NCBI GenBank assembly: GCA_001871165.1
Contig: MNUT01000024.1
Span: forward strand, 1-57,827
Length of the DNA: 57,827 bases
Reading direction: 5' to 3'
From: Candidatus Falkowbacteria bacterium CG1_02_37_21
Lineage (GTDB): Bacteria > Patescibacteriota > Patescibacteriia > Patescibacteriales > UBA12465
The notes under the pieces were generated by a model. That model was not told where the DNA came from, made no database searches, and saw only the letters and a list, made by a program, of their open reading frames with translations. The position numbers were made by a program, and so were the translations under genes. This document shows, piece after piece, positions 22,537 through 50,644 of the stretch (positions are counted from its first letter, which is position 1; each line of letters opens with the position of its first letter).

Positions 22537-22538
22537 AT

Positions 22539-34604: not shown

Positions 34605-34626
34605 AAGTTTTTTGTTTCGTATATAT

Positions 34627-34660: not shown

Positions 34661-34678
34661 GTGGTTAGACTATTTATA

Positions 34679-36148
34679 TTAATTTTTAATGCCCGGTATA
34701 AATCTTTTAATATTGGTTAAAGTAGATTTTTTACTAAATTGTTTGATGCGATCACGGGCGCGTTTAGTTTTAGCAAATTTCAACCAGGCTAAGTTCGGGT
34801 AAGGGCGTTTTTTCTCAATAATAATATCAACGAAGTCACCATTTTTTAATTCTTGATCAAGACGGCCAATTTTATCATTAACAATGGCTCCCGCCGCTTT
34901 GTTTCCGATATTAGTATGTACAGCGTAAGCAAAATCAATTGGTGTCGCTTTTTCCGGTAGTTCAAAGACGTCGCCTTTTGGCGAAAACACAAAAATACGA
35001 TTATGGAAGATATCCATTTTTATTTTTTTGACCAATTCATCGGTGTCACTGATTTCTTTTTGGACATCTATTATTTCTTGTACCCAGCTTGGTTGCTGGT
35101 AGCTGGCGTTAGCTCCTGGTCTCATTTTATAATACCAATGAGCCGCTAAACCATAGATGCTTTCTTCATGCATTTCGCGGGTGCGGATTTGAAATTCCGC
35201 CGATTTATTCTCGGGACCGAAGACGGTGGTATGGAGCGAGCGATAGTCGTTGGGTTTTGGTACGGCAATATAGTCTTTGAAGCGTTGCGACTTAGGTTTC
35301 CAGAGAGTGTGAATAATACCAAGCGCCTTATAGCAATCATCTACGGTCGGGACAATAAGACGCAAGGCAAACACGTCATAAATTTCGTCAAACTTTCTTT
35401 TTTTCTCCTTCATCTTGAGATAGATACTATAAAGATGTTTAAAACGTACCTCTAACTCGTACTCAACACCGGCCTCGATTAGACGTGGTATTATGATATT
35501 TTTTACTTTTTGAAAAAAGCGGTTTCTTTCTACCTTTTTTTCTACTTCATATTTATATTCCAGCTCATGGTATTCGTCCGGATAAAGAATCTTAAAACAC
35601 ATGTCCTCCATTTGCCATTTTAATTGGCTAATACCGAGCAGACCGGCAATAGGCGCATAAATTTCTAAAGTTTCACGCGCTATTCTTTGTTGTTTTTCCG
35701 GAGTAAGGCTTTCTATTGTGCGAAGATTATTAAGACGATCGCAAAATTTAATAAAAATAACTCGCAAATCGCTGGTCATGGCGAGAAACATTTTTTTGAG
35801 GTTTTCACGATAACGTTCTATGCCGCGATATTTAAGTGTACCAAGTTTTGTTACCCCTTTTACCAGAGAGGCAATTTCTGATCCAAAGAGAGATTCAATT
35901 TCTTCTAAGTTATGGCTGGTATCTTCCGGCACATCATGCAGAAGACCCGCTGCCACCGTAGATAAGTCGGCTTTTATACTGGCTAATAAATAAGCGGTGT
36001 GAAGAGGATGTTGAATATATGGTTCACCACTTTTACGAGTTTGATCGCGATGAGCCATATCGGCAAATTCAAAAGCCAAAGTCAGAGCCGTAGTGTCTTC
36101 TTGAGGATGATTTTCCGTAAATTTGTTTATTATTCTTTCAATGGTCAT
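34679..36148 (-). CDS. rel: Rel/SpoT homologue: HD hydrolase + (p)ppGpp synthetase + TGS domains, without the C-terminal ACT region
   Basis: 489 aa. HD motif (HRDQTRKSGEPYIQHPL...HDVPED), synthetase motif (DYIAVPKPNDYRSLHTTV) and TGS (IFVFSPKGDVFELPEKATPIDFAYAVH). Confidence 0.85.
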   Translation of the reverse strand: MTIERIINKFTENHPQEDTTALTLAFEFADMAHRDQTRKSGEPYIQHPLHTAYLLASIKADLSTVAAGLLHDVPEDTSHNLEEIESLFGSEIASLVKGVTKLGTLKYRGIERYRENLKKMFLAMTSDLRVIFIKFCDRLNNLRTIESLTPEKQQRIARETLEIYAPIAGLLGISQLKWQMEDMCFKILYPDEYHELEYKYEVEKKVERNRFFQKVKNIIIPRLIEAGVEYELEVRFKHLYSIYLKMKEKKRKFDEIYDVFALRLIVPTVDDCYKALGIIHTLWKPKSQRFKDYIAVPKPNDYRSLHTTVFGPENKSAEFQIRTREMHEESIYGLAAHWYYKMRPGANASYQQPSWVQEIIDVQKEISDTDELVKKIKMDIFHNRIFVFSPKGDVFELPEKATPIDFAYAVHTNIGNKAAGAIVNDKIGRLDQELKNGDFVDIIIEKKRPYPNLAWLKFAKTKRARDRIKQFSKKSTLTNIKRFIPGIKN

Positions 36149-36186
36149 AGACTTGCCAATACGCCTTTTTTATTTTTTTATTTTTA

Positions 36187-36195
36187 TGTTATAAT
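36187..36195 (+). promoter_or_regulatory. Extended -10 element (TGTTATAAT) upstream of the giant-protein locus
   Basis: Exact TGnTATAAT, 50 nt upstream of the ATG at 36245, in a divergent intergenic region. Confidence 0.45.
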
Positions 36196-36244
36196 AATTT
36201 ATATTATAGTATAAAAAGGGCAGTTTTAAAAGTTTAGTTTTTTA

Positions 36245-38950
36245 ATGATGAAGAAAAAAATAAAGCCTTGTATTTTATTTTTCGGTTTATCTGGTTTGAT
36301 TATTTCCGGTTTTTTTATTTTACTCATGTCGCCTTCTATCGCTTTCGCTCAAGATTTTGGTATAGATAAGGTATCTAATGCTTTAAATGGTTCTCTTTCT
36401 GTTGCCGCCGACCCACGCCTGATTGTCGGTCGTCTAATTCAAATTGCTTTGAGTTTTTTAGGCGTTATTGCGATTGTGTTAATAATGTATGCCGGATTTA
36501 TTTGGACTACTTCCGGCGGTGAAGAAGAAAAAATAGATAGTGCTAAAAAAATTCTGCGTAATGCTATTATTGGTTTGGCGATTATTATTTCGTCTTGGGC
36601 AATTGCTACTTATGTTTTGACCAGTTTAATGGCGGCGATTGGTGGCGGCGGTGGTGCTAATATTCCTGCCAATAATAATATTAGAATTAGCTCCGGTGCG
36701 GCAGCTTTAGGATCTTGTACAGTTGATACTCTTTATCCGAGTAATGGCGCTAAAGAAATACCGCGTAACACCTCATTGATGGTGACTTTTAAAGAGGATG
36801 TAAATTTGGATGGTCTTTGTGTTAATGATGCTGGGGTGTCTTGTACCTGTAATAACACGACTTGTCGTCAGATTAATCCGGAAGCGGTACAAATTTATAA
36901 GAGTGATTTAGGAAATGCCTGTGCGACTACTTGCCCCAGCCCTAATAGTAATACACTTGATGTTTCATTAAATTTGTCTAATGATCATAAAACTTTGATT
37001 TTAACACCATTAAGTCCTTTGGGATCCTCTGATGATAACACAGACTATTCGGTACGTTTAACAAATAAAGTGAAGAAGATAGACGGTTCCTCAATGTTTA
37101 AAAATTGTGGGTCAGATTTTCTTTATTGGTCTTTTGCCGTCAGTAATCGCTTAGATTTAACTCCACCGGAAGTACTCTTGCAGGGTATCTTTCCTTTACC
37201 TGATAATGAGGGGGATATATCTGGTGTAATGACGCCGGCTTCGTCGGCTGAGGGAGAAATATTGGTTAATAATTGTCCGACAATATATTCTGCGGCCAGT
37301 GTTATAAATATTGCGCCAAATACGGCGACAGTTATTTTAGATTATCATGGTAGTATCCCCCAATTTAAAATAAGTGTTCCGTCTGACGTACCGGACAAAG
37401 CACAACTTTTTGATAATGATGGTAATCTTTTGGGTGTTTCTGATTTTGATTCTGATGGCCAAATAATTTTTAAGACTTACCTTACCTTAACTGCCGTTAG
37501 TCATCCAGCCGGAAGCTCATGGACCGTTAATATTAATCCTGAACAATTAGCTGATACTCTTACAGTTGGTAGTGAGATTTATACATTTGCGAGGTCCATG
37601 GCCAATAATAATATTTTTGTACCAGGAACTTGTAATATTGTTCAGCAAGCCGTTAATATTCGTGCTAAATTAAGTGGTAGTGACGTAGTAGATGTTAGTC
37701 GGACGGGCAATCAGGTGCATTTAATAGCTAAAGTAGCCGGTGTGGCCGGTAATAATATTGTTGTGACCACTACAAACCCTGCCGCTCTAGCCATTACGTC
37801 TTTAGGCGGCGGGACTGATCGGTCTGAGTTTAAGCAGGCCCAGGATAAACCCGATCGTCCGATGAATTCCGTTATTCAAATTAATTTTAGTGAACCGATT
37901 AATCCGGTTACGATTTCCGGATCGGCTGCGGAAGTGGCTGACTATATTCGCGTAGTTAATGCCAGTGCCTCTAGTACTCCGGCAGGAGCGGTTTGCAGTG
38001 AGGACAAACAATGTTTGTCTTATAAATGTGAAGGTGGTGTTTGTCGGGGCGATTACTTGGCTGGTAAATTTATAGTCAGTAACGCCTATAAAACTTTAGA
38101 ATTTATTTCCGATAAAGAATGTGGCGTTAATGGTTGTGGTGAACAAATCTATTGTTTGCCCCCTAATAGTCATTTAAAACTAAATTTGGTGGCGGCTAAT
38201 TTAAAATCTTGTGACAGCGATACTGACTGTTTATCCAACAGTCCTTATACGCAGTGTTTGAATACGACTTTGGGTTATAAAACTTGTCAAAATCCCTTGG
38301 GCCAAAATTATCCAACGGCTAATTTGAGTAATTTGGATGGTATTGTGGACGCGGCGGCTAATTCCTTTGACGGTGATCGTAGCCAGACGGCGGAAGGACC
38401 TCTGGGTTTTTATAATGATAATTACCCGACCGCTACTAGCACCGTGACTCGTGACAAATATCAGTGGTCTTTTTACATTGGTGATAAGATTAATTTAACT
38501 TCACCTAAGATTACGTCTATTAGCCCTCTACCATCTAGTTTGAATGTTGGCGTATTGACACCGGTGGAAGTTACTTTTAATACCTTAATGCTAAATAGTA
38601 GTCTTCGTACCGGACAAGTAACCGTAAAAAGTGGTGACTCTACGGTTAAGCATAAATTAATTAATTTGCGAAGCTCTGTTCCTTCGCCTTTGGGTTATTG
38701 GGTGGAAAGTGACAATAAAGATGTGATGCCTTTAGACGGAGAGCCGGATATTACTGTCGCTAAAATTTCTCATACTCCTTTTAGTGAGTCCGTCACTTTA
38801 ATTTCTCAGATTGGTTCTGGCGTAAAAGATATTTATCAAAATTGTTATAAGCCTAGCGCCGGTCCGGATTGTAATTCCACCGCCGGACAACCATCTTGTT
38901 GTTTTGGTAGTCCCACCGCCACGTTAGGGGCAGACGGTAATTGTCAATAA
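36245..38950 (+). CDS. Giant surface protein A: signal peptide + VirB2/TrbC-like two-TM pilin hairpin + Gly linker + Ig-like (Big_5/SbsA-like) and Cys-rich extracellular domains
   Basis: 901 aa. The signal peptide ends AFA/QD. TM1 IALSFLGVIAIVLIMYAGFIW, loop TSGGEEEKIDSAKKILRNA, TM2 IIGLAIIISSWAIATYVL, then GGGGG. Three P.NG...V.VTF-type Ig-like segments and many Cys. Confidence 0.8.
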   Translation: MMKKKIKPCILFFGLSGLIISGFFILLMSPSIAFAQDFGIDKVSNALNGSLSVAADPRLIVGRLIQIALSFLGVIAIVLIMYAGFIWTTSGGEEEKIDSAKKILRNAIIGLAIIISSWAIATYVLTSLMAAIGGGGGANIPANNNIRISSGAAALGSCTVDTLYPSNGAKEIPRNTSLMVTFKEDVNLDGLCVNDAGVSCTCNNTTCRQINPEAVQIYKSDLGNACATTCPSPNSNTLDVSLNLSNDHKTLILTPLSPLGSSDDNTDYSVRLTNKVKKIDGSSMFKNCGSDFLYWSFAVSNRLDLTPPEVLLQGIFPLPDNEGDISGVMTPASSAEGEILVNNCPTIYSAASVINIAPNTATVILDYHGSIPQFKISVPSDVPDKAQLFDNDGNLLGVSDFDSDGQIIFKTYLTLTAVSHPAGSSWTVNINPEQLADTLTVGSEIYTFARSMANNNIFVPGTCNIVQQAVNIRAKLSGSDVVDVSRTGNQVHLIAKVAGVAGNNIVVTTTNPAALAITSLGGGTDRSEFKQAQDKPDRPMNSVIQINFSEPINPVTISGSAAEVADYIRVVNASASSTPAGAVCSEDKQCLSYKCEGGVCRGDYLAGKFIVSNAYKTLEFISDKECGVNGCGEQIYCLPPNSHLKLNLVAANLKSCDSDTDCLSNSPYTQCLNTTLGYKTCQNPLGQNYPTANLSNLDGIVDAAANSFDGDRSQTAEGPLGFYNDNYPTATSTVTRDKYQWSFYIGDKINLTSPKITSISPLPSSLNVGVLTPVEVTFNTLMLNSSLRTGQVTVKSGDSTVKHKLINLRSSVPSPLGYWVESDNKDVMPLDGEPDITVAKISHTPFSESVTLISQIGSGVKDIYQNCYKPSAGPDCNSTAGQPSCCFGSPTATLGADGNCQ

Positions 38951-38952
38951 TT

Positions 38953-41900
38953 ATGATGAAAAAAATTGGACGACAACTAGTTGGTGTTTTCATTCTCCTG
39001 GGCGTTTTCTTGTTCGCGCAATTTACTTTTGCTCAGGGCTTTGGCATAAATGAAGTCTCCAACGGCCTGAATGGATCTTTGGCTACTGCCGATCCGCGAG
39101 AGTTGGCGGTACGTATTATCAATATCGCCTTAGGTTTTCTGGGAATTATTGCTGTCTCCTTAACACTTTATGCTGGATATCTTTGGATGAGCTCAGCCGG
39201 CGATGAAGAAAAAATTGAAGATGCCAAGAAAATTTTACGTAACGCTGTTATCGGATTGGTAATTATTTTATCATCTTGGGCTATTGCCACTTTTTTAATT
39301 ACAAAACTGGGAGGAGCGATTGGCCCTAACACCGGCGGTTGTTTTGAAGGACAAATTTCTTCTTGTGGTTGTGGTGGTTCCATGGTTTGCACTGGCGGTT
39401 CTTTCGGTGCTTGTGTCGGCTCGGATTGCAGCGGCGGAGGAATTACGCCTTCCAGTTGCGACGGCAGTGCTAATCCTGGTTGTCAGGCAACAAGCCAAAT
39501 TTGTTCTACGGACGATTATTGCGATGCTGATAGCTGCGCTTGTAAGCCTAAGGGTTCCTTAGGAGATTCTTGTGATACCGATACGACTAACGCCACTTGT
39601 GATGCTGACAACAATCTCTGTTCCGAATATTTATCTTGCAGTGCCGATAGTTGTACTTGCGTCGGTCAGCCGGTTATTACCGGACTCAGTCCGGTGGGCG
39701 GTTTTTGTACTGAAGATCTAAATAAATCTTGTGTTACTGATGATGATTGTGCGGAAGTATGTGATCTGACGACGCCAAACGGTGCGACTGATAATTTTGT
39801 GACAATTTTAGGTAAGAACTTTGGTGAATATTCTGCTACTTCCAGTAAAGTAGTCTTTAGCGGAGCAGATCACACCCTCTTGACTAGTGTTGATGGTCGT
39901 CAACCGAACTCTTTAAATATTGCCTGCATTAATACTTGGCGAGACAACCAAATTGTTATTGCTATTCCCAGCGGTGCCGACTACGGTCCTTTGGCAGTGG
40001 TTAATCAAGATGGACAATCTGACACGACTAATAATGACTATGGTCCGGCCTTAGAAGATTTTCAAAAAAATAATATTACACGACCCGGTTTATGTTATCT
40101 TAATCCTCAGGCCGGAGTTTTAAGTTCTCAAGTTGCTTATCAGGGTATTAATCTTTATTCTAGTGAGGCTTACTTTGGTAATTATCAAACTAATGTCGCA
40201 GCACTAGACTCGCAGTTTATTAATAGTGCCGGCTTAACGGGGACTTCCACCATTCCGAATATTAAATCGGGAAATTCTGGCAGTTTTGTTCAGAATATTT
40301 CTAACGGTCAACCGGAAAAAAGTAATTATTTACTTTTCACTAAACAATCAGAACCCGGCTCCGGCCCTTTTATTTCCAGTTTTTACCCCACCGCCGGTGT
40401 CGCCGGACAATACGTTACTATTAGAGGTAAGGGCTTTGGTGGCGCGCGTGGTTTAAATCATGTTTATTTTGGTAGTTTAGAAGCGGCTTATGATTTTCCC
40501 GATGTATGTTTAAATTCGGTTTGGAAAGATGATCAGATTATTGTTAAAGTCCCGACTGGTTTGAGTAACGGTTATCAAGCGATTCAAGTGAAAATTGGTA
40601 TTACTACGATTGATACGCAAGAATTAAACCCCAATACTTTTCAAACGGATGATAGTTTAGCGCTTAAGTCTAGTTTATGTAAAATTGATCCAGAACGAGG
40701 TCCGCCCGCTACGCCGGTAACTTTGTGGGGAGAATATTTCGGTGGTGTTAATAGTGAAGGTTTAGTTAAATTTAATTTAGAAAAAATTGCCACCGGTACT
40801 ATTAAAAGAAGCGGACAAGCCGATATGATAGAAACCGCTGTGCCGGTTGGAGCTGTATCTGGCCCGGTTAAGGTTGTTAATAATAGTACTTCGGGAAATG
40901 AACTTAATTTTAATGTCGGGCAATGTAAAGTGGATGCCGATTGTGGGGATCAGGTTTGTTGCCCGGTTAATACTTATAAAGAAGGGCGTTGTGTTAATAC
41001 CATAACCGACTGTATATCCGACATTCCGACCTCTGTCTTTGAATGGAAATTTAGTACCGGTTTTGGTACTTGTGTCGGTCCGAATTGTGATGATCCTTGT
41101 AGAGATTTTACTACCGCGGAAGAATGCAGTCAGCAAACGGCTTGTTGTTTTGATTCCAAGGCAACAGATGATTTAACAGATGATTCTTGTCGTTCCGGTA
41201 GTGCAATTAGTTCCGGTGCCGATCAGGGTTATTGCGCTTATTATAATTGTGATGCCGTGAATATTACGCAATGTGCCACTTCTACTCCTTTAAAAATTGG
41301 TTCTTATTTTGGTCAGGCTGATTGTATTACGGAATGTGTTAAAGATGATCCTTGTTCTTCTTTGACTAGTGTAGCTACTTGTCGGCAAAATAGTCGCTGC
41401 TGTTTTGATGCCAATAAAACTATTGATGCCGCTGACGATGTTTGTAGTTTAGGCGACGCGATTAGTTCCGGCGCTGACCAGGGTTATTGCGCTTATTATG
41501 ACTGTGATGCTGTTGATACTACTTTATGTGCTACTTCCACTCCTATCAAAGTTGGTACTTATAGTAGTATAAGTTCTTGTGATCGTTCATGTTGGACTCC
41601 TCCCAGTGGAGCCGGATTGTCATGCGCCGGCGCTACTGTTAGTTCTACGTGTGATACTACTGTCTGTAATTATCTTGGTTTAAGTTGTCTTACGTCTGAC
41701 GGCAGCTTTAATGCTACCGGTCCGGACTGTGGTACTTGTTGCTGTCAGCCGGGAACGATTGATGAGTTAACCGGTTGGAAATGTTTGGCTGATAAAGGAA
41801 ATTGTGATGGAGTTAATCGTGGTTTATTCTGCGGCTGCTCTAGCGATGATGAATGCGGAGCCAAGGAAACTACCGGTTGTGGCGTTGATACTTGTTGTAC

Positions 41901-43923
41901 GGCGCGACCAGAAATAACCGCTACTAACCCGCCTCATTTGGCCGATCAGGTTTGTCGTAATGCCGTGATTCAAGCTACTTTTAACGAAGCCATGAGTGCG
42001 GCTAGTTTTGATAATAATGTTTTGCTCCTGGAGGAAAGAAATTATGGTAACGGAGTTTGTCCGGCCGGCTCTTTTGTCGCGCAAGCTAATTCGGTAGTTG
42101 ATATTTTAGAACAAAAAAATAAAAATTGGTTAGCGAAACTTTGGGATAATTTGTTCGTTCTTGTTACAGGTTGGGGTGAGCGTTGGAACACTCGCGCCTT
42201 GGCGGGTGTGCCTGACCCTAATAAACTTTACTGTTCTGTCGCCGGAACTGTTTCTGTTGAAAATAAAACAAATAGTGCTATTTTGAGTTTTGCGCCGCAA
42301 CGTTTGTTATCTTCCGCTGCTAATTACTACTTTGTTATTAAAGGTGATGAAGCCTTAAATAGTAAGACGGGAGTCTTGAGTGCGCAGGCTGTTGGCTTCA
42401 ACGGTTTAGGTTATCTTGACCCCGCCACTAATGCTTATGTGGAAGGTAATTTAATTCAATTAAATAGTGTTAATTACATAAATTCGCATATTATTAAATT
42501 TACTACCTTATCGGAACAAAGTGGTAATTCCGGTATTTGTAATATTGATGAGGTAAAAGTTAGTCCGGAGTCTTATCTGTTTAAGACTACAGCCAATGAT
42601 TTAAACGAAAAAGATGATCGAGTCAATAATATTACTTTTGACACTGTCTCTGATCGTGATAAAGTTTTTACTGCTAACGCTTACAGTGATGATGGACAAA
42701 TTTTACAACCGGTAGCTGGTTATACTTGGGATTGGGATTTTCAGGTAGCGGACCCTGGTATTGTTAGCCTAGGTTCGGCGATTAGTTTACCAAATAATAA
42801 AATGTTAGTGACGGCTACTACCGGACAGACAGACGCCTTAACTAAAGTTACGGCCACTATCAATATGGATAGGTTTATCAGCCCCGTGTGTCTTAATAAT
42901 TGTAATGTTTATACTGGTGGTGATGGTTTTAATAAGGCGGCCGATATTTATGTATTTTTATGTAATAATCCTTGGCCGCCGGTAGCTGCTAACGGCACTT
43001 GGTCGCCGTGGTCTGATACTTGTCAAAATGCTTTGGGTAATAATTGTGTTAATTATAATTATAAGTTTTATTATTGTCGTGATGCCGGTGCGAGTGGCAC
43101 CTTAGATGATTTGCCGGCGATTATTAATGAAGCGATTATCCGCGGTGTCAGTTCTAATTTAATTTGTAGTACCGATCGTTCCAGTTGTTCTACAGCTAAT
43201 AATCCTTGTGGGCAGGATGAAAATGGTGATGGCATTGGTGACGGTTTATGTTTATGGAATGTGTTGAAAGAATCTTATTTCTTTCGTGAAAAAATACTTT
43301 CCGGCGGTGAGCTGTTAAGTGCTACTAGCCTGAGTACAGGTAATACCGTTCAGGTTAATTGGCGTTCTAAGGCTGATCAAGTAGCTTCTTATAAAATTTA
43401 CTATTTGATGTCTGATCAGGGCACCATGTTATCTAAGACAGTAAAAGCTAGTGATGCTTGTAGCGTGGCTGGCGATGTTAATACCTGTCAGACCGTTATT
43501 GATGGTTTAACTAATAAACAGGCCTATATTTTTAAAGTTAGTGTCATCTCTGTTAATGGCACAGAAAGTCAATTATCTAATGAATTAACAGCGACTCCGA
43601 TTGACAGAATAAGACCGGCCACTCCGCTTAACTTTCGAGCGGTGGCCAGTACCTCTGCTTTAAAGTTTACGTGGTCGGCTAATACCGAAGAGGCCGTAAC
43701 GTCTCGCCTTTATCACGGTATTAAATCCGGTTTTTATGGAGAATCATTTGATTCCGTACTTAGTGGAACTAGTTTAAGTTTTCCGATTAGCCAGTTTGCT
43801 ACCAGTAGTCCTCATTATTTTATTTTGTCGGCTTTAGACGCGAGTGATAATGAAAGTGCTAAATCGGCAGAATGGAAATGTTTGAATGGCGTTTGTTCAA
43901 TAGTTATTGTTGTTCAACAATAG
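38953..43923 (+). CDS. Giant surface protein B: signal peptide + paralogous VirB2/TrbC-like hairpin + Cys-rich modules + IPT/TIG-like repeats + tandem 85-aa Cys repeats + C-terminal FN3-like domains
   Basis: About 1656 aa from the ATG at 38953, 2 nt after the upstream stop; the track's TTG at 38941 is rejected. The N-terminus is nearly colinear with protein A. TIG-like: PVITGLSP..TILGKNFG and PFISSFYPTAGVAGQYVTIRGKGFG. FN3-like C-terminus. Confidence 0.8.
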   Translation: MMKKIGRQLVGVFILLGVFLFAQFTFAQGFGINEVSNGLNGSLATADPRELAVRIINIALGFLGIIAVSLTLYAGYLWMSSAGDEEKIEDAKKILRNAVIGLVIILSSWAIATFLITKLGGAIGPNTGGCFEGQISSCGCGGSMVCTGGSFGACVGSDCSGGGITPSSCDGSANPGCQATSQICSTDDYCDADSCACKPKGSLGDSCDTDTTNATCDADNNLCSEYLSCSADSCTCVGQPVITGLSPVGGFCTEDLNKSCVTDDDCAEVCDLTTPNGATDNFVTILGKNFGEYSATSSKVVFSGADHTLLTSVDGRQPNSLNIACINTWRDNQIVIAIPSGADYGPLAVVNQDGQSDTTNNDYGPALEDFQKNNITRPGLCYLNPQAGVLSSQVAYQGINLYSSEAYFGNYQTNVAALDSQFINSAGLTGTSTIPNIKSGNSGSFVQNISNGQPEKSNYLLFTKQSEPGSGPFISSFYPTAGVAGQYVTIRGKGFGGARGLNHVYFGSLEAAYDFPDVCLNSVWKDDQIIVKVPTGLSNGYQAIQVKIGITTIDTQELNPNTFQTDDSLALKSSLCKIDPERGPPATPVTLWGEYFGGVNSEGLVKFNLEKIATGTIKRSGQADMIETAVPVGAVSGPVKVVNNSTSGNELNFNVGQCKVDADCGDQVCCPVNTYKEGRCVNTITDCISDIPTSVFEWKFSTGFGTCVGPNCDDPCRDFTTAEECSQQTACCFDSKATDDLTDDSCRSGSAISSGADQGYCAYYNCDAVNITQCATSTPLKIGSYFGQADCITECVKDDPCSSLTSVATCRQNSRCCFDANKTIDAADDVCSLGDAISSGADQGYCAYYDCDAVDTTLCATSTPIKVGTYSSISSCDRSCWTPPSGAGLSCAGATVSSTCDTTVCNYLGLSCLTSDGSFNATGPDCGTCCCQPGTIDELTGWKCLADKGNCDGVNRGLFCGCSSDDECGAKETTGCGVDTCCTARPEITATNPPHLADQVCRNAVIQATFNEAMSAASFDNNVLLLEERNYGNGVCPAGSFVAQANSVVDILEQKNKNWLAKLWDNLFVLVTGWGERWNTRALAGVPDPNKLYCSVAGTVSVENKTNSAILSFAPQRLLSSAANYYFVIKGDEALNSKTGVLSAQAVGFNGLGYLDPATNAYVEGNLIQLNSVNYINSHIIKFTTLSEQSGNSGICNIDEVKVSPESYLFKTTANDLNEKDDRVNNITFDTVSDRDKVFTANAYSDDGQILQPVAGYTWDWDFQVADPGIVSLGSAISLPNNKMLVTATTGQTDALTKVTATINMDRFISPVCLNNCNVYTGGDGFNKAADIYVFLCNNPWPPVAANGTWSPWSDTCQNALGNNCVNYNYKFYYCRDAGASGTLDDLPAIINEAIIRGVSSNLICSTDRSSCSTANNPCGQDENGDGIGDGLCLWNVLKESYFFREKILSGGELLSATSLSTGNTVQVNWRSKADQVASYKIYYLMSDQGTMLSKTVKASDACSVAGDVNTCQTVIDGLTNKQAYIFKVSVISVNGTESQLSNELTATPIDRIRPATPLNFRAVASTSALKFTWSANTEEAVTSRLYHGIKSGFYGESFDSVLSGTSLSFPISQFATSSPHYFILSALDASDNESAKSAEWKCLNGVCSIVIVVQQ
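41092..41601 (+). repeat. Tandem in-frame 255-nt (85-aa) Cys-rich coding repeat, 2 copies
   Basis: DPCRDFTTAEECSQQTACCFDS...SSGADQGYCAYYNCDAVNITQCATSTPLKIGSY aligns with DPCSSLTSVATCRQNSRCCFDA...SSGADQGYCAYYDCDAVDTTLCATSTPIKVGTY. The copies start at 41092 and 41347. Confidence 0.85.
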
Positions 43924-43946
43924 CATTAGCATTTATATAAATATCT

Positions 43947-46900
43947 ATGCATATGAAAGGCATTAAAAAAATAGCCATGATGATGGGATTGATTTTAGTT
44001 TTGTCATTTCTGGTTGTCGCCCATAACTCTGATGCTCAAGACAACAGCCCGGATGCTATTGCCATCCGCATTATCCCTAATCCCAATCATTATAGTATCA
44101 GTCGTTGGTATACCAGTCAGAATTTTACCGGTTCACCGCAAGCTCTGACGGTTGATGGTTATGAGGCTATTCGTGACGGTCGGACTGTTTATGTTAATGC
44201 CGCTAATATTGATCCAACTTCTCGCACCATTTATACTAATATTTATTTGATTTCTTATAATCAAGAGTCTGAAGCAAAAACGGTTGATATTCTCGGTCAA
44301 ATTATTTCTCACTGGAAGTTTAATGATAATATTATAGAGAATAATAGTCCCGCCCCCAGTTGTTCTATTTCTTCTTTGAATTGTAAATCCGACAGTGATT
44401 GCGGTAGCGGTCAGAGTTGTGCTTTAGCCGGACCTTTAGCGGGGTCTTGCGTATTAAATAATTTAAAAAATTGTAGTGCTGATTCTGATTGTCCGGCTAA
44501 TTTTTTCTGCGATGGCTTGAAGGCTAAAATAACACGTGATATTAAGCGTGTCGGACGCTTAGAGGAAATAAGAGGGGCTCTTTATAATTTTAAGCAAACA
44601 AATAAACGATACCCGACTTTACTGGCTGGAACTTATTTAACGAATAATAGCTTGTCGGTCTGGCCCAGCTGGAAGCAAGTGTTATTGTCGGATTTAGCTG
44701 TTAGTAATAGTTTTGTTGACCCGATTAATAAGTTGGGTAAATGCGTAATTGATCTGGTCGTTAAAAATGGTCGCGATTATAGTGCTACCACTGCTGCTTG
44801 TAATTTAAATAGTGGTGTCACTACCGCTTCTTGCAATAATGCTACCTGGGATTATAATTTTCAGATGAATGGTGGTGATTATCGTTTATGGGTAGAGACT
44901 GCTAATAATAACACTGGCGGGATATATGGTGATTTAAGCTCAGCCCCAGCTCTATTTGCTTTCGGAGAAAATTTTTGTCCCGAGCCGGGCATTCAACATC
45001 ATCTTCTAGTTTATGTAGATAATGTTTTAAAAGGGTCAGCTTGTAATCCGGCTGTTAATCCCAATGAGTCACGGCAAACAGCTTATGTTGACTTAGGGCA
45101 TTTAGATGCTGGTAGCCATTCTGTTAGGATTAAATGGGATAATGATTGGCAATATAATCCCGATGGTGTTTGGGGTAATGCTGATGACGCTGATTCTAAT
45201 CTTAAAATTTATCGTTTAGGTTTAACTACTTCTGATTCTTTTGATATAGAAACTTGTTGGGATCAAAATTCTAAAAGTTTTGCTTATAGTTCTGTTAACG
45301 GTCCTTTAACCTTACCGCCCGATAGTTATGCTTTTGCCTACGTTAGTGATTCAGAAGGCTCTGATTATAGTCTGTGTGCCACTTTAGAAAGTCGTAGTCC
45401 AAGTTTAGCTTATTCTTTTGGACCTTTTGATTTAGCAGATTCGGCTTGTGCTTTTGCTTCGGGAGTGAGTGTTGGCGGGCAAGCAGGTAATTCCGCCCCT
45501 TCAATAGTTAGTCAATCTTTAGGGGCTGAAGCTCATCAGCCCTTTAATGGTTATATTCAAGCGACGGATGCCGAAGGAGATTTATTGACTTGGTCAATTT
45601 TAAATTCTAGTCCCGGGACCTGGTCAAGTTGGCAGAGCCCGAGTGGTCAGAACCAGCCTCCGGTCTTGCAAGATACCAGTAATCCTTATCAGAAAAAAGT
45701 TTATGCTCCATTTGCCGGTGATCCTGGTACTTATAGTCTTAGATTATCCATTAACGATGGTCAAGGGGGCATTTTAAGCACCACCACCCCAATTACTATT
45801 ATTTCTCCGTCCATTTCCTTGAGCGCCGAGAACACGGAGTACGCTTTAGATTCGGGTTCATCTTTTAGTTATGTTATTTCCTTTGCCAGTAATAGTCTTA
45901 ACAATCCTAGCACAGCTTATAGCGTCCAAAAAACAGCGGGCCCCCTTGATATTTTAGCCGGATTAACGAAAAGTTTTATTAATTTGGGTAATGGTCAATA
46001 TCAAGTTAAATATGACGGGGATATCTCTCCTGCTACGGTTAATAACGATACAGTTTTTGCTTATAAGTTTAGTGTTACTGACAGTTATAATAAAACAGCC
46101 ACTAAAAATTTTAATGTTACTCTAAAAGTGGCTAGTGTTCCTAGTTTAAATTTTTCTTGTGTTGATATGATACGCGTTGGAGAACAATATAGTTGTATTT
46201 TAGGTCCGACTATGCAAGGGGAATCTGAGATTAATTATGTAGCGAGTGGTTTACCGAACGGCTTAAGTCAAGATTTAGGTGTTATCACCGGGGCGCCAAA
46301 TTCTTCCGCTCCCGGTATTTATACCGTGAACGTGACGGCTGCTAATAGTTTTGGTGCAGTTATCACTAAGTCATTTTCATTAAAAGTAAATAATTTTTGT
46401 GGTGATGGTATTAGACAACAACCTAATACCGAGGGACGGGGTGGCCCAGCTAATAATGGTCAAGAGAGTTGCGACGGCAGTAGCGGGGTAACAACTAGCC
46501 CTACCGCCAGTAGAGTTAATTTGCAATACGCTTGTAATAGCAGTCTTTGCATTTATAAATCTCCTATTAATGGTGGCGGTTATTGCGGTGACGGCTATTG
46601 TCAGCTGAGAATTAATGGCCAAGATGTAGAGAATCATAGTAATTGTTCAGTGGATTGTGATGCGGCGTCTTTACCCTGCACACCTTCTTGCGTCGGTAAG
46701 TGTTTCGGTGCCAGTGATGGCTGTACTGGCACTTGTCCTGATAATGGAGCTAATAGTGCCTGTACAAGTGGTGAGTCTATTTTTTGTTCTGACTTAGTAG
46801 GCCCGGGATATGCTGGCAGCGCTCTTTGTAAGAGTGATTGTTCTGGTTTTGATATTAATAGCTGTGGCGCTTGTAACCCTTCTTGTACTGGTGTATGTGC

Positions 46901-47357
46901 CGGCGCTGATAACGGTTGTGGTGTAGCTTGTCCATCTACGGCTACTAACACTTTTTGTACTAGTAGTTATTCGGAAGATTGTTCTACTTATTTAAATTGG
47001 CCACCGGAAAGTTTTAGCGGTAATGTGGTTTGTAATAGTTCTTGTTCCGCTTATGATACTTCCGGTTGTGATGCCTCAGGATCATATTGGTACCAGGTAC
47101 CGGCGTCGGAAGATAGATATTTAACTGTAGGCACTGATTGTATGGTGAGGCTAAACGTTGATGCTAATAATAATATTGAATGTATTATGAAGGATAATCC
47201 TAATAGTTCGTCTCAGTGGTTTCAGGGCGTCATCGCTATTAGTGTAAATACAAAAATTTGCGCCGTACCGGGTTGCGCTACAGCAGTGAACACTACTAAA
47301 TGTAGGTATTTTAGTGGCGTTTGGACCAACCACTGTTTCGTTCATAAAACTTGGTAA
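43947..47357 (+). CDS. Giant secreted Cys-rich protein C with an internal pilin-headgroup-like segment, cadherin-like/He_PIG-like Ig domains and C-terminal Cys-repeat modules
   Basis: 1136 aa. Signal peptide MHMKGIKKIAMMMGLILVLSFLVVAHNSDA/QD. ITRDIKRVGRLEEIRGALYNFKQTNKRYP is pilin-like. SAPSIVSQSLGAEAHQPFNGYIQATDAEGDLLTWSI and GLPNGLSQDLGVITGAP are Ig-like. Confidence 0.8.
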   Translation: MHMKGIKKIAMMMGLILVLSFLVVAHNSDAQDNSPDAIAIRIIPNPNHYSISRWYTSQNFTGSPQALTVDGYEAIRDGRTVYVNAANIDPTSRTIYTNIYLISYNQESEAKTVDILGQIISHWKFNDNIIENNSPAPSCSISSLNCKSDSDCGSGQSCALAGPLAGSCVLNNLKNCSADSDCPANFFCDGLKAKITRDIKRVGRLEEIRGALYNFKQTNKRYPTLLAGTYLTNNSLSVWPSWKQVLLSDLAVSNSFVDPINKLGKCVIDLVVKNGRDYSATTAACNLNSGVTTASCNNATWDYNFQMNGGDYRLWVETANNNTGGIYGDLSSAPALFAFGENFCPEPGIQHHLLVYVDNVLKGSACNPAVNPNESRQTAYVDLGHLDAGSHSVRIKWDNDWQYNPDGVWGNADDADSNLKIYRLGLTTSDSFDIETCWDQNSKSFAYSSVNGPLTLPPDSYAFAYVSDSEGSDYSLCATLESRSPSLAYSFGPFDLADSACAFASGVSVGGQAGNSAPSIVSQSLGAEAHQPFNGYIQATDAEGDLLTWSILNSSPGTWSSWQSPSGQNQPPVLQDTSNPYQKKVYAPFAGDPGTYSLRLSINDGQGGILSTTTPITIISPSISLSAENTEYALDSGSSFSYVISFASNSLNNPSTAYSVQKTAGPLDILAGLTKSFINLGNGQYQVKYDGDISPATVNNDTVFAYKFSVTDSYNKTATKNFNVTLKVASVPSLNFSCVDMIRVGEQYSCILGPTMQGESEINYVASGLPNGLSQDLGVITGAPNSSAPGIYTVNVTAANSFGAVITKSFSLKVNNFCGDGIRQQPNTEGRGGPANNGQESCDGSSGVTTSPTASRVNLQYACNSSLCIYKSPINGGGYCGDGYCQLRINGQDVENHSNCSVDCDAASLPCTPSCVGKCFGASDGCTGTCPDNGANSACTSGESIFCSDLVGPGYAGSALCKSDCSGFDINSCGACNPSCTGVCAGADNGCGVACPSTATNTFCTSSYSEDCSTYLNWPPESFSGNVVCNSSCSAYDTSGCDASGSYWYQVPASEDRYLTVGTDCMVRLNVDANNNIECIMKDNPNSSSQWFQGVIAISVNTKICAVPGCATAVNTTKCRYFSGVWTNHCFVHKTW
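46677..47066 (+). repeat. Tandem in-frame 195-nt (65-aa) Cys-rich coding repeat, 2 copies
   Basis: CTPSCVGKCFGASDGCTGTCPDNGANSACTS...CSGFDINSCGA aligns with CNPSCTGVCAGADNGCGVACPSTATNTFCTS...CSAYDTSGCDA. Confidence 0.7.
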
Positions 47358-47371
47358 TAATTATTATATTT

Positions 47372-47698
47372 ATGAATAAAAAAAATCAAAAAATTATAAC
47401 AATTGCTGTCTTGACTCTAATTTTAATTATTACTATCGTTCTGGTGCTTCGTCTAAAAAACGATCCAGCTACTTCTGACGGCACAGCAGGAATTATTACC
47501 TCCACTACGCCCCAGTTTCTTAGTGAGCAAGAGAAGCTTGATATGGGGATTAACACTAAAGATCAAGTTCAAATCTTTCGTGATGCTAGCGGTGATAATA
47601 TTGTTTATAAAATTATTAGAACAAAAGATGATATTGTTTCTGACCCGGCCACAGTGACCGCTATTAACCCTCCGCAAAAATTGCCGATAAATGAATAA
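47372..47698 (+). CDS. Small single-pass membrane protein
   Basis: 108 aa from the ATG at 47372 (MNKKNQK); the track's TTG at 47351 overlaps the upstream gene. One TM helix: IITIAVLTLILIITIVLVL. Confidence 0.6.
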   Translation: MNKKNQKIITIAVLTLILIITIVLVLRLKNDPATSDGTAGIITSTTPQFLSEQEKLDMGINTKDQVQIFRDASGDNIVYKIIRTKDDIVSDPATVTAINPPQKLPINE

Positions 47699-47749
47699 TC
47701 AGCTATAATTAAAATATTAATAATTAATAGACAATAAAAAGATAATTAT

Positions 47750-48490
47750 ATGTTTAATGATTTAAATAATAATAAGCCAAATAATCCTCCGGTTGATGAT
47801 ATTTTTGCTGAAACCGATAAGACTTCCTCAGCTCCGCTCGGCGCTACTTCAGATATTTCTGCACAAAAAGTTGGTTTGGATGCGGAAGAAAATTTACCGA
47901 CTAGTGAGGCAGAGGAGACTCCAGCTTCTGGTGGTGATAAATGGTTTAAAATAACTATCATAGTAATTATTGTTTTAATTTTAGCTTTGGGCGCCTACTT
48001 ACTTTATAGGAAATTTGTACCAATGCCGTCCGCTGAAGTTGCCATGACGACTGATAATACTATAATCCCGGCTGATAATACAGCGACAGATATTCCCAAT
48101 GACCTGGCGCCTGAAGTTCCTATTGAAAATACCGATATAAATCAGGACGCTATAAATACCGATTTAAATAATGCTGACGTTATTGATCAGATTGATAATA
48201 CTATTGACCCAAATAACGATATTCCTACCTCTACCGTACCGGTAGTCCCAGTTGACTCTGATTCTGACGGCTTGACTGATGCGGAAGAAGCCGTAGTTGG
48301 TACCAACCCCTTAATAGCTGATACGGATAGCGATGAATTAGGGGACTATGAAGAAGTAAAAATTTATCAGACCAATCCTCTAAATCCGGATACGGACGGT
48401 GATGGTTATTCCGATGGTGCGGAAGTTAAGTCGGGCTATAATCCTAATGGTCCGGGAAAATTATCCGACCTTGAACAGCCGGTGCAATAA
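47750..48490 (+). CDS. Single-pass membrane protein with thrombospondin-type-3-like Ca-binding repeats
   Basis: 246 aa. Acidic N-terminal tail, TM helix WFKITIIVIIVLILALGAYLLY, D/N-rich region, then DSDSDGLTDAEE, DTDSDELGDYEE and DTDGDGYSDGAE. Confidence 0.75.
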   Translation: MFNDLNNNKPNNPPVDDIFAETDKTSSAPLGATSDISAQKVGLDAEENLPTSEAEETPASGGDKWFKITIIVIIVLILALGAYLLYRKFVPMPSAEVAMTTDNTIIPADNTATDIPNDLAPEVPIENTDINQDAINTDLNNADVIDQIDNTIDPNNDIPTSTVPVVPVDSDSDGLTDAEEAVVGTNPLIADTDSDELGDYEEVKIYQTNPLNPDTDGDGYSDGAEVKSGYNPNGPGKLSDLEQPVQ

Positions 48491-48493
48491 TTT

Positions 48494-48685
48494 ATGTTAG
48501 ATGATAATTTTAACAAAAAACAAGTACCTCGGCCGCGGACGATCCCCTCTAAAATTAAACAGCATCTTTCCTTAAATCTTCATATTATGCCTCAAACTGG
48601 AAGTAGCCATTTTCAAAAATGGTTATTTTTAGCTTTTCTGCTCTTTGCTCTATTGGTTATAATGGCAATTTTGATTTTTTGGTAA
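48494..48685 (+). CDS. Small C-terminally anchored membrane protein
   Basis: 63 aa. Basic N-terminus and C-terminal TM helix WLFLAFLLFALLVIMAILIFW. It starts 3 nt after the upstream stop. Confidence 0.5.
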   Translation: MLDDNFNKKQVPRPRTIPSKIKQHLSLNLHIMPQTGSSHFQKWLFLAFLLFALLVIMAILIFW

Positions 48686-48706
48686 TAGTTTATTCTTGAT
48701 TACTTT

Positions 48707-49816
48707 ATGTTTAATAGTCAGAAAAAAAATAAATCAGATTCTACGGTTAATGATAATATTACCGCGGCTGTTAATCAGGATTTAATTATTCATAATATGC
48801 CTCGGGGGGTTCGATTAAGTGGAACCATTGCTCGTGGCGTGAATACTCCAGCTTTTCATGGCATTGAGTCAGATAACTCATCATTCTCTCAGTCGTCTGT
48901 CTCTAATAATTCTGTATCGCCGACAGGCACTTTAAACGAAAAATCTCCAGCAAATTTTAAAATTGTAGGCTGGTTGATTATGATGGGAGGTCTTATTTTT
49001 ATTGGAATATTAGTATATTTATCTTATATTTTTATTATTAAACCAGTAGCCTCTATTCCGGCAGAAGATGCTAATATTATTGTTCCCGATATTTCTGTAG
49101 ATGATACTGGTGAGAACATAGCAACTAGTGCTGACCCCATAATGGATATAATCAGTACCACTACGGATTTGAATCAGGATATTTCTCTGGAGGGCTCAAC
49201 CAGTACGGAAGTCGTTGCTACCGGAACCGAACCGATTATGGACATTGCCCCGCTCTTACCGATTTTACTTGACAGCGACGGCGACGGTCTGAGTGATCAA
49301 GAGGAATTAGTTTTTGGTACCTCCGCTACCTCGGCAGACTCCGACAACGATACTTATTCCGATAGTATGGAGATTAGTGGTGGTTATAATCCGATTGGCA
49401 CTGGGTTTCTGATTGATAACGACAAACTCCAGTTAAATTCTTATAGTGGTGATGGTTTTAGATATTCCATATTATCTCCTAAAGATTGGACGATTCAGGA
49501 TTCAGCTAATGGCACTACAATATTTTTTATTGCCCCTGATGAATCTTTTATCCAAGTTGTAGTAACGCCTAATTATAATAAAGCTAGTATTTTAAACTGG
49601 TATAGCGAATCTTTCCCCGGACAGTCTTTGACTTATAATGATGTTAAGACGACTGCGACTTGGGAAGGTACCCAGAGTTCGGATGGGAAAAATGTTTATT
49701 TGACTGATAATCGTTATGATAATGTTTTAGTTATTTCTTATATACCGGTTATTAGTGATCAGGTTCTTTATCCTGCCGTTTTTCAAATGATGATAAATTC
49801 TTTGATTCTGGAATAA
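48707..49816 (+). CDS. Single-pass membrane protein with TSP3-like repeats and a C-terminal globular domain
   Basis: 369 aa with the same architecture as 47750..48490, including the MFN start. TM helix FKIVGWLIMMGGLIFIGILVYLSYIFII. Repeats DSDGDGLSDQEE and DSDNDTYSDSME, followed by a C-terminal beta-rich domain of about 130 aa. Confidence 0.75.
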   Translation: MFNSQKKNKSDSTVNDNITAAVNQDLIIHNMPRGVRLSGTIARGVNTPAFHGIESDNSSFSQSSVSNNSVSPTGTLNEKSPANFKIVGWLIMMGGLIFIGILVYLSYIFIIKPVASIPAEDANIIVPDISVDDTGENIATSADPIMDIISTTTDLNQDISLEGSTSTEVVATGTEPIMDIAPLLPILLDSDGDGLSDQEELVFGTSATSADSDNDTYSDSMEISGGYNPIGTGFLIDNDKLQLNSYSGDGFRYSILSPKDWTIQDSANGTTIFFIAPDESFIQVVVTPNYNKASILNWYSESFPGQSLTYNDVKTTATWEGTQSSDGKNVYLTDNRYDNVLVISYIPVISDQVLYPAVFQMMINSLILE

Positions 49817-49858
49817 CTCCGCGTTTATTATTATGCTGGGATTAGATTATTTAATAGC

Positions 49859-49886
49859 AAAAACTCCCTATAACAGGGAGTTTTTT
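49859..49886. terminator. Bidirectional intrinsic terminator closing the surface-protein locus and clpP
   Basis: The stem ctccct/agggag has a 5-nt loop, an A5 run upstream and a T6 run downstream. Confidence 0.75.
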
Positions 49887-49914
49887 ATCAAAATAATTTT
49901 TTGTTAGTGGTGAT

Positions 49915-50496
49915 TTATTTCTTACCGATAACCTTATCAATCAAACCATACTTTAGAGCCTCTTCCGCCGTCATAAAATTATCACGGTCGCTGTCCTTTT
50001 CTACGGTAGTAATTTTTTGACCGCTATGGAGAGCTAAAATTTTATTCATGCGATCTTTGATTTTTAAAATATGTTCGGCTCGAATTTTAATATCTGAGGC
50101 TTGACCCTCCGCTCCGCCCATAACTTGATGAATCATAACTTCGCTGTTCGGCAAAGCAAAACGCTTGCCTTTTTTACCGGCCGCGAGTAGAACTGAAGCC
50201 ATAGAAGCGGCTAAGCCCACACAAATAGTGGATACATCAGATTTAATATATTGCATTGTATCATAAATTGCTAAACCGGATGAGACCGAACCGCCCGGTG
50301 AATTTATGTAAAATTTAATATCGGCATCTTTATTTTCCGCGTCCAAGAAGAGAAATTGGGCAATAACAATATTGGCGACATGATCATCAATCGCTTCGCC
50401 TAGGAAAATAATTCTATCGCGCAAGAGACGAGAATAGATATCATAAGCTCGCTCAGTTTGACCTTCTTTCTCAATGACAGTTGGTATTAGAGGCAT
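49915..50496 (-). CDS. clpP: ATP-dependent Clp protease proteolytic subunit
   Basis: 193 aa. [11 protein letters not shown] (catalytic Ser), MIHQ (His) and DRDNFM (Asp). Confidence 0.95.
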
Positions 50497-50644
50497 ATTT
50501 ATTTAATATTATTTTATTATTATAGGGTGAAAAGAGCTTTTTGTAAAGATTTCCCCTTGATTTTTCTAAATACTTATTCTAATATAACTCCAGTAAGCAA
50601 AATTGGCTTGAAGTAGACGTTTTAATATTGTATATATAATCAAT

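Follow-up and report, generated by a model that had tools for sequence, protein, structure and literature searches.

A large fraction of bacterial diversity falls within the Patescibacteria, and how they build their envelopes and hold on to hosts is largely unexplained, as is the role of their essential type IV secretion system (T4SS) and its VirB2-like pilins. The small VirB2-like pilins of this group often occur in arrays of 2 to 11 with ~25% mutual identity, in or near a T4SS cluster, and in one genetically tested Patescibacteria species they are essential and a pilus is suspected (PMC10633639, PMC12102498). Here we describe a seven-gene locus, g1 to g7 (36245-49816, + strand), in a 57.8-kb contig of Candidatus Falkowbacteria bacterium CG1_02_37_21 (MNUT01000024.1, 57,827 nt; hereafter the window), in which a module of the VirB2 family appears to have been co-opted to root two paired giant surface proteins, g1 and g2, in at least one large lineage comprising Falkowbacteria and relatives. 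Both giants look slow-evolving and disulfide-rich, they are accompanied by bitopic partners, and their family is represented in hundreds of 50%-identity clusters and in no fewer than 136 species genomes. The literature that we searched, with incomplete coverage, contained no description of VirB2 modules fused to giant ectodomains or of such an operon.

Judged by sequence, the N-terminal 130 amino acids (aa) of g1 and g2 are full members of the VirB2/TrbC small pilin family (PF18895), with which they have in common a signal peptide, a pair of hydrophobic helices with a short charged loop between them, and an arrangement as adjacent paralogs in a genome of the candidate phyla radiation (CPR). 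VirB2/TrbC pilins are small, whereas the g1 and g2 modules carry ectodomains of 770 and 1530 aa, respectively, rising to >3300 aa in a distant relative (homologs 850 to 3400+ aa), and, unlike the described Patescibacteria arrays, g1 and g2 have closely related modules, lie between RelA and ClpP genes and have bitopic partners. The modular type IV pilins, PilB of Streptococcus sanguinis among them, likewise combine an N-terminal filament or membrane module with a bulky C-terminal adhesive module (PMC8179133), but carry a class III signal peptide that is cut by a prepilin peptidase, whereas in g1 and g2 an ordinary AxA signal precedes a two-helix hairpin of an unrelated class; we rejected an identity as type IV pilus pilins on the basis of these AxA-type signals. 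A prepilin peptidase gene lies 5.7 kb from the locus in the window and a PilB-like ATPase gene 25 kb from it.

Surface-layer (S-layer) proteins offer a further comparison. SlaA and SlaB of Sulfolobus are encoded by adjacent, co-transcribed genes for large surface proteins with immunoglobulin (Ig) domains, one of them membrane-rooted (PMC10903991, PMC6911244), and SbsC, which we compared together with Sap, is the best fold match of g1. In contrast to these S-layers, the present proteins lack SLH domains, are rich in Cys, appear to be anchored, both of them, by a VirB2 hairpin rather than by a C-terminal span, and are encoded with five further genes; neither an SLH nor a CWB2 wall-binding module was matched by Pfam or NCBIfam in the locus proteins. 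Giant bacterial adhesins (RTX adhesins, SraP, GhpA and MSCRAMMs, microbial surface components recognizing adhesive matrix molecules, of the SdrG type) are likewise built as extended chains of beta-sandwich repeats that carry binding modules at their distal end, and g3 matches such proteins by fold. The locus differs from them in having no RTX repeats, type I secretion system (T1SS) genes, serine-rich repeats or LPXTG motifs on the giants, and in that g1 and g2 are slow-evolving and of constant length; for RTX repeats and T1SS genes, the locus and its flanks gave no Pfam or NCBIfam match. Sortase anchoring of the giants was rejected since the C-termini of g1, g2 and g3 are without an LPXTG motif. 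The original prediction that the locus matches no characterised secretion, pilus or S-layer system was borne out by profile and fold searches, which returned no confident homology. In the NCBI pipeline, homologs of g2 are called "IPT/TIG domain-containing protein", and some of g1 are called "pilin" or "Ig-like domain-containing protein"; the domains of g1 and g2 have thus already been recognised but the system has not.

A VirB2-type hairpin at the root of two giant proteins

The features of g1 and g2 are as follows.

36245-38950, + strand: g1, 901 aa; signal peptide aa 1-35 (predicted cleavage between AFA and QD), VirB2-type hairpin, Gly linker, ~5 all-beta Ig-like domains and Cys-rich tail
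36413-36637, + strand: g1 hairpin, aa 57-131; pair of long helices with a short, charged connecting loop (AlphaFold2 model, alignment)
38953-43923, + strand: g2, 1656 aa; signal peptide, VirB2-type hairpin aa 50-124 paralogous to that of g1, further domains assigned by Pfam
41143-41562, + strand: internal tandem duplication in g2; two 165-nt copies with 75% identity, a repeated Cys-rich module (repeat search)

The N-termini of g1 and g2 are paralogous, with 58% identity across 120 aa (E = 1e-37). Both signal peptides end in AxA followed by Q(D/G)FG, the cleavage context AxA and QDFG being conserved, and hydropathy indicates two long hydrophobic helices linked by the loop TSGGEEEKIDSAKKILRN. 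Both proteins exceed the gathering score of Pfam T4SS_pilin (PF18895; 26.6), at 32.7 bits for g1 and 38.5 bits for g2, which together with the N-terminal identity upholds the original prediction of two giants with paralogous VirB2/TrbC-like hairpins. All 15 orthologous N-terminal modules that were examined match PF18895 (best E = 2.9e-16) as well as NF045849, a pilin-like family of mycoplasma integrative and conjugative elements, and 8 of the 15 also match TrbC/VirB2 (PF04956); full-length g1 and g2 of the window score 25 and 36.5 bits against NF045849, below its cut-off of 40. A profile of the hairpin module searched against all PDB sequences matched no solved VirB2 or TraA pilin, its only match being a designed protein (E = 0.043), so the link of g1 and g2 to VirB2 relies on the Pfam and NCBIfam models. 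Within both proteins the hairpin ranks among the best-conserved regions, with 26 invariant columns across the orthologs of both and a mean pairwise identity of 0.68 in g1 and 0.66 in g2, versus 0.55 and 0.51 for the whole proteins.

We therefore predict that g1 and g2 are exported proteins in which a cleavable AxA signal and a VirB2-type two-helix hairpin precede hundreds of residues of Ig-like structure. After cleavage, the hairpin would span the membrane twice with its charged loop inside and with both ends, the Gly linker and the ectodomain outside. VirB2 pilins sit in the membrane in this way before assembly, with both ends outside. The AlphaFold2 model of g1, built from 46 homologs, has a predicted local distance difference test (pLDDT) score of 74; two helices (57-89, 94-131) lead into a Gly linker modelled as disordered, all-beta domains fill 160-856, and the Cys-rich tail is of low confidence. 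Above-threshold Pfam matches are Big_5 in g1 and TIG, Big_5 and fn3 in g2, where the hairpin is followed in order by a Cys-rich block, TIG domains, a second Cys-rich block, a Big_5 region and two fn3 domains.

In a whole-chain fold search of the PDB, g1 is matched best by SbsC, an S-layer protein (4uic, E = 3.6e-8; also 2ra1), with a template modelling (TM) score to 4uic of only 0.11-0.13; whole S-layer proteins score 0.11-0.20 and Bacillus anthracis Sap domains ~0.3. A single CopC-like domain was also matched (TM 0.64), as were, less strongly, staphylococcal and cadherin adhesins. We read the fold matches of the modelled g1 and g3 as indicating strings of Ig-like domains as found in surface layers and adhesins, and nothing more specific; with many Ig-chain proteins matched at TM scores of 0.3 or below, whole-chain matches were not used to assign either protein to a family.

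The three large proteins g1, g2 and g3 contain 27, 88 and 52 Cys residues, 167 in all, in agreement with the well over a hundred originally noted, and g4 to g7 contain none. One Cys of g1 lies within the signal peptide, leaving 26, 88 and 52 (166) in the mature proteins, each an even number. Cys residues are among the invariant and near-invariant columns of the g1, g2 and g3 alignments, most densely in g1 and g2, and ~100 Cys are invariant or near-invariant in the g2 alignment. The even numbers together with the near-invariance of these residues fit full disulfide pairing of the outside domains. No thiol-oxidoreductase was recognised among the annotated window genes.

The two most conserved stretches of the locus are the g1 tail (aa 857-901, 38813-38947; mean pairwise identity 0.72) and aa 30-130 of g3 (44034-44336; mean pairwise identity 0.75). 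Since both are highly conserved yet modelled as monomers with pLDDT <50, the g1 tail and the g3 N-module may need a bound partner to fold.

Conservation and gene order across relatives

More than 170 full-length homologs of g1 were found at 50-76% identity and 880-930 aa, and at least 400 homologs of g2. Against 1.84 billion 50%-identity cluster representatives, g1 matched 626 at E<=1e-30, and the best 150 of these are nearly all full length, with identity down to 31%. The homologs of the locus proteins carry the source names Candidatus Falkowbacteria, Patescibacteria or Parcubacteria, and a published genome table places Falkowbacteria in the GTDB class ABY1. A scan of GTDB with one genome per species located g2 relatives in 136 stretches, from which 72 loci were kept, and gene order was compared by tblastn with 13 window proteins. 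The order HisRS - orf77 - RelA(-) - g1 - g2 - g3 - (g4) - g5 - (g6) - g7 - ClpP(-) - SecD - SecF, with (-) marking the minus strand, is kept in ~60 species genomes and holds in essentially every locus of the Falkowbacteria tier with enough flank; many metagenome contigs add to these genomes, and the objection anticipated at the outset, that no relative might keep the order, is thereby removed. Median identity to the window is 86% for ClpP, 76% for RelA, 69% for HisRS, 67% for SecD and 59% for SecF, compared with 52% for g1 and 49% for g2 (both full length), 52% for g6, 44% for g3 (coverage just 67%), 41.5% for g5 and 35.5% for g7. By these medians, g1 and g2 evolve at a rate only slightly above that of SecF, and coverage shows both to be conserved over their entire length; the locus proteins appear to be under purifying selection across a large CPR lineage.

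Within the Falkowbacteria tier, synteny extends equally to the housekeeping flanks, so the contribution of regional collinearity could not be judged from that tier alone. For this reason, the most divergent relatives of g1 were used as queries against metagenome contigs; this gave 411 encoding stretches, of which 80 loci were kept. Falkowbacteria-like loci (tier 1) contain all seven genes. In a second tier (RelA 56-67%, g1 34-42% identity) the order is RelA(-) - g1 - g2 - g5-like - g7-like, and in one such locus (L094) the next genes downstream are YbeY and FtsA instead of ClpP and SecDF. Loci of a third tier (HisRS ~40% identity, e.g. L088) have no RelA gene, and a 1030-aa g1 directly follows orf77 and precedes a g2-like giant; in L088 the g2-like gene (13109-23470) encodes >3400 aa, with a Laminin_G_3 (concanavalin-like lectin) module and DUF4215 identified by Pfam. 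The g2-like genes of the distant loci L088, L124 and L085/L136 all exceed 3400 aa and run past the locus edge. Searches by tblastn detected no g3, g4 or g6 in the lineages beyond the Falkowbacteria tier, tier 2 included, and these three genes look like additions specific to the Falkowbacteria tier.

Both g1 and g2 retain the T4SS_pilin module in all tiers. PF18895 scores 40-47 bits in distant relatives, one distant g1 reaching 46.8 bits for T4SS_pilin and 26.7 for TrbC/VirB2, and exactly two hairpin-coding places are present per locus in 131 of 150 loci. A third such place outside the g1-g2 pair was observed in L113 (~21534-22655) and in L148 (~600-900, - strand). The persistence of the g1-g2 pair, joined in tier 2 by g5-like and g7-like genes, while its neighbours change argues that it is a functional unit. 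The unit of seven genes originally proposed thus stands for the Falkowbacteria tier, but the deeper unit is g1 and g2 followed by g5-like and g7-like genes, without detected g3, g4 or g6.

Operon layout

The seven + strand open reading frames (ORFs) between 36245 and 49816 encode products of 901, 1656, 1136, 108, 246, 63 and 369 aa, and the identical set was called independently on a contig from a groundwater metagenome (ENA ERZ909571 / SRR1534154, 85 kb). Intergenic gaps from g1 to g7 are 2, 23, 14, 51, 3 and 21 nt, assuming ATG starts at 38953 (g2) and 47372 (g4). The locus is bounded by two features.

36149-36244, no strand assigned: divergent intergenic region, 96 nt, AT-rich; presumed promoter region between RelA/SpoT (- strand) and g1 (sequence read)
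49859-49886, no strand assigned: bidirectional intrinsic terminator common to the operon and the convergent ClpP gene (sequence and folding)

The divergent RelA/SpoT gene upstream of g1 ends at 36148, and a sigma-70-like match for the - strand lies at 36230-36203; promoter-like matches are frequent across the AT-rich DNA of the locus and carry no evidential value. The terminator forms an 11-bp hairpin of -13.7 kcal/mol (z = -5.5; 0 of 200 shuffles fold equally well), and as an A-run precedes and a T-run follows the hairpin, it could work in both directions. Internal terminator-like sites are at chance level (13 observed versus 13.1 expected), in line with the earlier view that the locus is not split by terminators. 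Coordinates and the independent gene call agree with the layout first proposed, of seven same-strand genes with gaps of 2-51 nt between a divergent region and a bidirectional terminator, and g1 to g7 form an operon of closely spaced surface-protein genes, all on one strand, in a CPR bacterium.

A variable secreted protein, g3

43947-47357, + strand: g3, 1136 aa; secreted, with signal peptide, no membrane anchor, Cys-rich, Pfam He_PIG
44757-45266, + strand: lineage-specific insert of g3, aa 271-440 (tblastn coverage); column identity 0.04, long beta strands in the model

The third gene combines conserved and variable parts: a conserved N-module (aa 30-270), the insert (aa 271-440), Ig/cadherin-like repeats (aa 516-815) and a variable Cys-rich C-terminus (aa 901-1136). 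In a tblastn coverage profile over 65 loci, the core of the insert (aa 301-400) is matched in just ~2-5% of related loci and the C-terminus is present in at most 39%; the Ig repeats are conserved. Homologs of g3 range from 885 to 1663 aa and differ in their accessory domains, among them He_PIG, CarboxypepD_reg, Beta_helix, SdrD_B, bMG3 and SpaA. The g3 model has a pLDDT of 69 with the repeats at 516-815 well modelled, and its fold matches are protocadherins and cadherins (best), an RTX adhesin repeat, SraP and the grappling-hook protein GhpA. He_PIG is above the Pfam threshold in g3, whereas Cadherin_4 and PKD fall below it in the locus scan. The adhesin domain vocabulary originally read from the locus is therefore supported by Pfam for Big_5, TIG, fn3 and He_PIG; its cadherin part misses the Pfam threshold, yet the best fold matches of g3 are cadherins.

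By these patterns g3 is a mosaic with swapped or hypervariable modules, and only g3 behaves like a variable binding module. Two Falkowbacteria-tier loci are without g3 (L051, where g5 directly follows g2, and L145, where g4 does), so g3 is dispensable even inside this tier. A diversity-generating retroelement was considered as the source of g3 variability and rejected, as 34000-52000 contains no template/variable repeat pair; the scanned window ORFs gave no match to a reverse transcriptase.

Four small single-span proteins, g4 to g7

47372-47698, + strand: g4, 108 aa; N-terminal membrane span and small outside domain (hydropathy)
47750-48490, + strand: g5, 246 aa; cytoplasmic N-terminus, one membrane span, acidic linker and TSP3 repeats (predicted Ca-binding)
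48494-48685, + strand: g6, 63 aa; basic N-terminus, conserved HxMPQT motif and C-terminal membrane span (hydropathy, 29 orthologs)
48707-49816, + strand: g7, 369 aa; cytoplasmic N-terminus with HNMP motif, one span, variable linker, TSP3 repeat and PsbP-like domain at ~aa 235-369

The remaining products, g4 to g7, are predicted bitopic membrane proteins with one hydrophobic span each. Together with the signal peptide of g3, hydropathy corroborates the initial description of a secreted Cys-rich protein of 1136 aa followed by four single-span proteins. The 35 orthologs of g4 are 96-125 aa long, and profile scans of g4 gave no family match. In g5 the N-terminus is conserved (ortholog consensus MFNDLNN..VDDIFAETDK) and Pfam TSP3_bac scores 58 bits. 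The C-terminus of g6, HIMPQTG followed by the membrane span, scores 15.0 against the NCBIfam LPXTG_anchor model, below the cut-off of 15.9, and g6 has no signal peptide. Orthologs of g7 match PsbP in 8 of 16 cases and PsbP_2 in 2 of 16 (best E = 6.7e-7). An HxMP motif in the predicted cytoplasmic part is conserved among the orthologs of both g6 and g7.

Proposed architecture and alternative explanations

The reading that we tentatively prefer, and which may well prove wrong, is that the operon encodes a surface fibre complex used for contact, based in the membrane and stabilised by disulfides, in which the stalk is conserved and the tip variable. The ectodomains of 770 and 1530 aa would reach out through the wall as rods with lengths of tens of nanometres, while the near-identical hairpins of g1 and g2 would pair with each other and with the spans of g4 to g7 in a fixed base, acting as a base rather than as a polymerising pilus. 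The conserved cytoplasmic motifs of g5, g6 and g7 would lie on the inner face of this base, the TSP3 repeats of g5 and g7 could bind calcium at the membrane surface and the PsbP-like domain of g7 may serve as an outside scaffold. In Falkowbacteria, g3 would dock non-covalently on the stalk via its invariant N-module and show exchangeable binding modules distally; in other lineages, lectin-type modules would be built into g2 itself. Such a structure, of undescribed design, probably serves cell-surface contact, its target most likely being a host cell or particle, and we infer an attachment or host-contact function for the locus. This reading is supported by the full-length conservation of g1 and g2 versus the variability of g3, by Laminin_G_3 in a distant g2 and by fold matches of adhesin type, and the presence of the hairpin among the best-conserved parts argues for specific contacts within the membrane. 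Further points in its favour are the even Cys numbers, the conserved gene order, the survival of the g1-g2 unit beside different neighbours, the two hairpins in most loci and the lack of T4SS annotations in the window and in those related loci that have annotated genes. In their conservation, the two giants nevertheless resemble structural components more closely than typical adhesins, which evolve fast.

Several observations weigh against such a contact fibre. The fold matches have TM scores of only 0.1-0.3 and indicate no more than strings of Ig-like domains; for an adhesin, g1 is unusual in its constant length and in being conserved throughout; g3 is undetected in distant lineages, which places the proposed tip outside the core; and one span would suffice as an anchor, so that the retention of a complete VirB2 module deep in the lineage suggests a pilin-specific function. 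The machinery for such a function is encoded elsewhere in Falkowbacteria genomes, since a published T4SS survey lists these genomes as VirB4-positive and also lists TrsD, VirB3 and coupling proteins for them (PMC12102498). No T4SS part is annotated in the window or in the annotated related loci (the other related loci having been compared only with the 13 window proteins), and VirB4, VirD4, SLH, usher and sortase gave no match among the scanned ORFs of >=100 aa, which are nearly all such ORFs of the window. The absence of VirB4/VirD4, sortase, SLH and usher that had been noted at the outset thus stands among the scanned window ORFs, with the sub-threshold LPXTG_anchor score of g6 beside it; given the published tables, the statement on VirB4/VirD4 is limited to the window.

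The main, if unlikely, alternative is that g1 and g2 are giant modular VirB2-type pilins handled by a monoderm-type T4SS encoded elsewhere in the genome; their hairpins would then be extracted and built, with small pilins, into a VirB2-type pilus or its tip or base, and the Ig ectodomains would be adhesive passengers on the outside. The best argument for it is the complete VirB2 module with its 26 invariant columns, to which the uniform matches of the 15 orthologous modules to T4SS_pilin and NF045849, and of 8 to TrbC/VirB2, add weight. The survey further lists VirB2-like matches in Falkowbacteria flagged as not near virB4, although whether these are orthologs of g1 or g2 could not be told (PMC12102498, Table S3), and the essential VirB2-like pilins of the genetically tested Patescibacteria species are a precedent within the group. 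The passenger position is also plausible from F-type pili, in which the C-terminus of the pilin faces the filament exterior. However, neither the window nor the annotated related loci have an annotated T4SS gene, the module has no sequence match to a solved VirB2 or TraA pilin, a passenger of 800-1500 aa on each subunit would by our estimate (not a computation) crowd a helical filament, and the strict pairing of two hairpins with bitopic partners resembles a fixed complex over a polymer. In a still bolder and somewhat less probable form of this idea, g1 and g2 would be the first known VirB2-family pilins with giant ectodomains, assembled by the essential, relaxase-poor Patescibacteria T4SS into or onto a pilus decorated with Ig adhesins, and the base or tip of such a pilus would be a heteromer defined by the paired paralogous hairpins; if so, the T4SS and pilins of CPR bacteria would be tied directly to cell-cell attachment. 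We also think it improbable that the products of the locus make up a constitutive structural coat, S-layer-like or fibrillar, and not a device for attachment; in such a coat g1 and g2 would form a membrane-rooted stalk and canopy following the logic of Sulfolobus SlaB/SlaA, g3 an outer variable layer and the Ca-binding g5 and g7 stabilising elements. The housekeeping setting, the constant length and ~50% identity across the lineage, the matches of g1 to SbsC and to Sap domains and the Pfam calcium-binding repeats are all in keeping with a coat, and calcium-dependent S-layer assembly is well known. A survey preprint moreover reports putative S-layer proteins in Patescibacteria and terms S-layers prevalent. 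Against these points are the low TM scores to S-layer proteins (just 0.11-0.20), the lack of SLH or any other wall-binding module, a Cys content of 3-5% in g1 to g3 where classical S-layer proteins are poor in cysteine, and a set of seven genes, four of them for small membrane proteins, that is unlike known S-layer loci. Very improbable, finally, is that the seven are unrelated surface-protein genes held together only by the regional collinearity of close genomes; the equal synteny of the HisRS, RelA, ClpP and SecDF flanks in the Falkowbacteria tier, the restriction of detected g3, g4 and g6 to this tier and the two loci without g3 would be explained in this way, but not the persistence of the g1-g2 pair with g5-like and g7-like genes where the flanks differ, the gaps of 2-51 nt with a single end terminator and no excess of internal ones, or the paralogous hairpins that number exactly two in most loci.

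Whether the giants are rooted in a contact fibre, as we prefer, or handled by a T4SS, the locus is a sequence-defined candidate for the surface structures on ultra-small groundwater cells and offers a clean test of whether VirB2-type hairpins work outside T4SS: a true T4SS link would mean a new pilus design, and a false one a new way to anchor surface fibres in a monoderm.

Genomic setting and neighbouring genes

The window carries a set of housekeeping genes typical of a small-genome bacterium, including several aminoacyl-tRNA synthetases, GyrA, RuvB, a UvrD-type helicase-nuclease, LepB, RelA/SpoT, ClpP, SecD, SecF and FtsA, and also encodes a prepilin peptidase and a tandem PilB-type ATPase. 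The latter (7769-10780, - strand) is a 1003-aa protein with two T2SSE (PilB/GspE-type) ATPase stretches and MshEN that looks like a tandem fusion, and the adjoining gene (10783-11763, - strand; 326 aa) has no family match. Between HisRS and the g1 cluster lies orf77 (34371-34604, + strand), a conserved ORF of 77 aa that overlaps the HisRS end and is faintly similar to Ribosomal_S21 (E = 0.06); nearly all related loci whose upstream flank is long enough have it, with 35-89% identity and without exception in this position. Two Wzy_C (O-antigen-ligase-like) membrane proteins are encoded at 24480-25799 and 53186-55525, the second fused to tetratricopeptide repeats, and the genes for the prepilin peptidase (55534-56295) and FtsA (56457-57716) lie just 3' of the second. 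A MazF/PemK toxin gene and, beside it, a gene for a helix-turn-helix and SocA/Panacea antitoxin are located at 571-1766 (- strand). In another Falkowbacteria genome (L003, 1-3973), the homolog of the UvrD/PD-(D/E)XK helicase-nuclease of the window (28201-31209) carries an intein (Hint, Intein_splicing).

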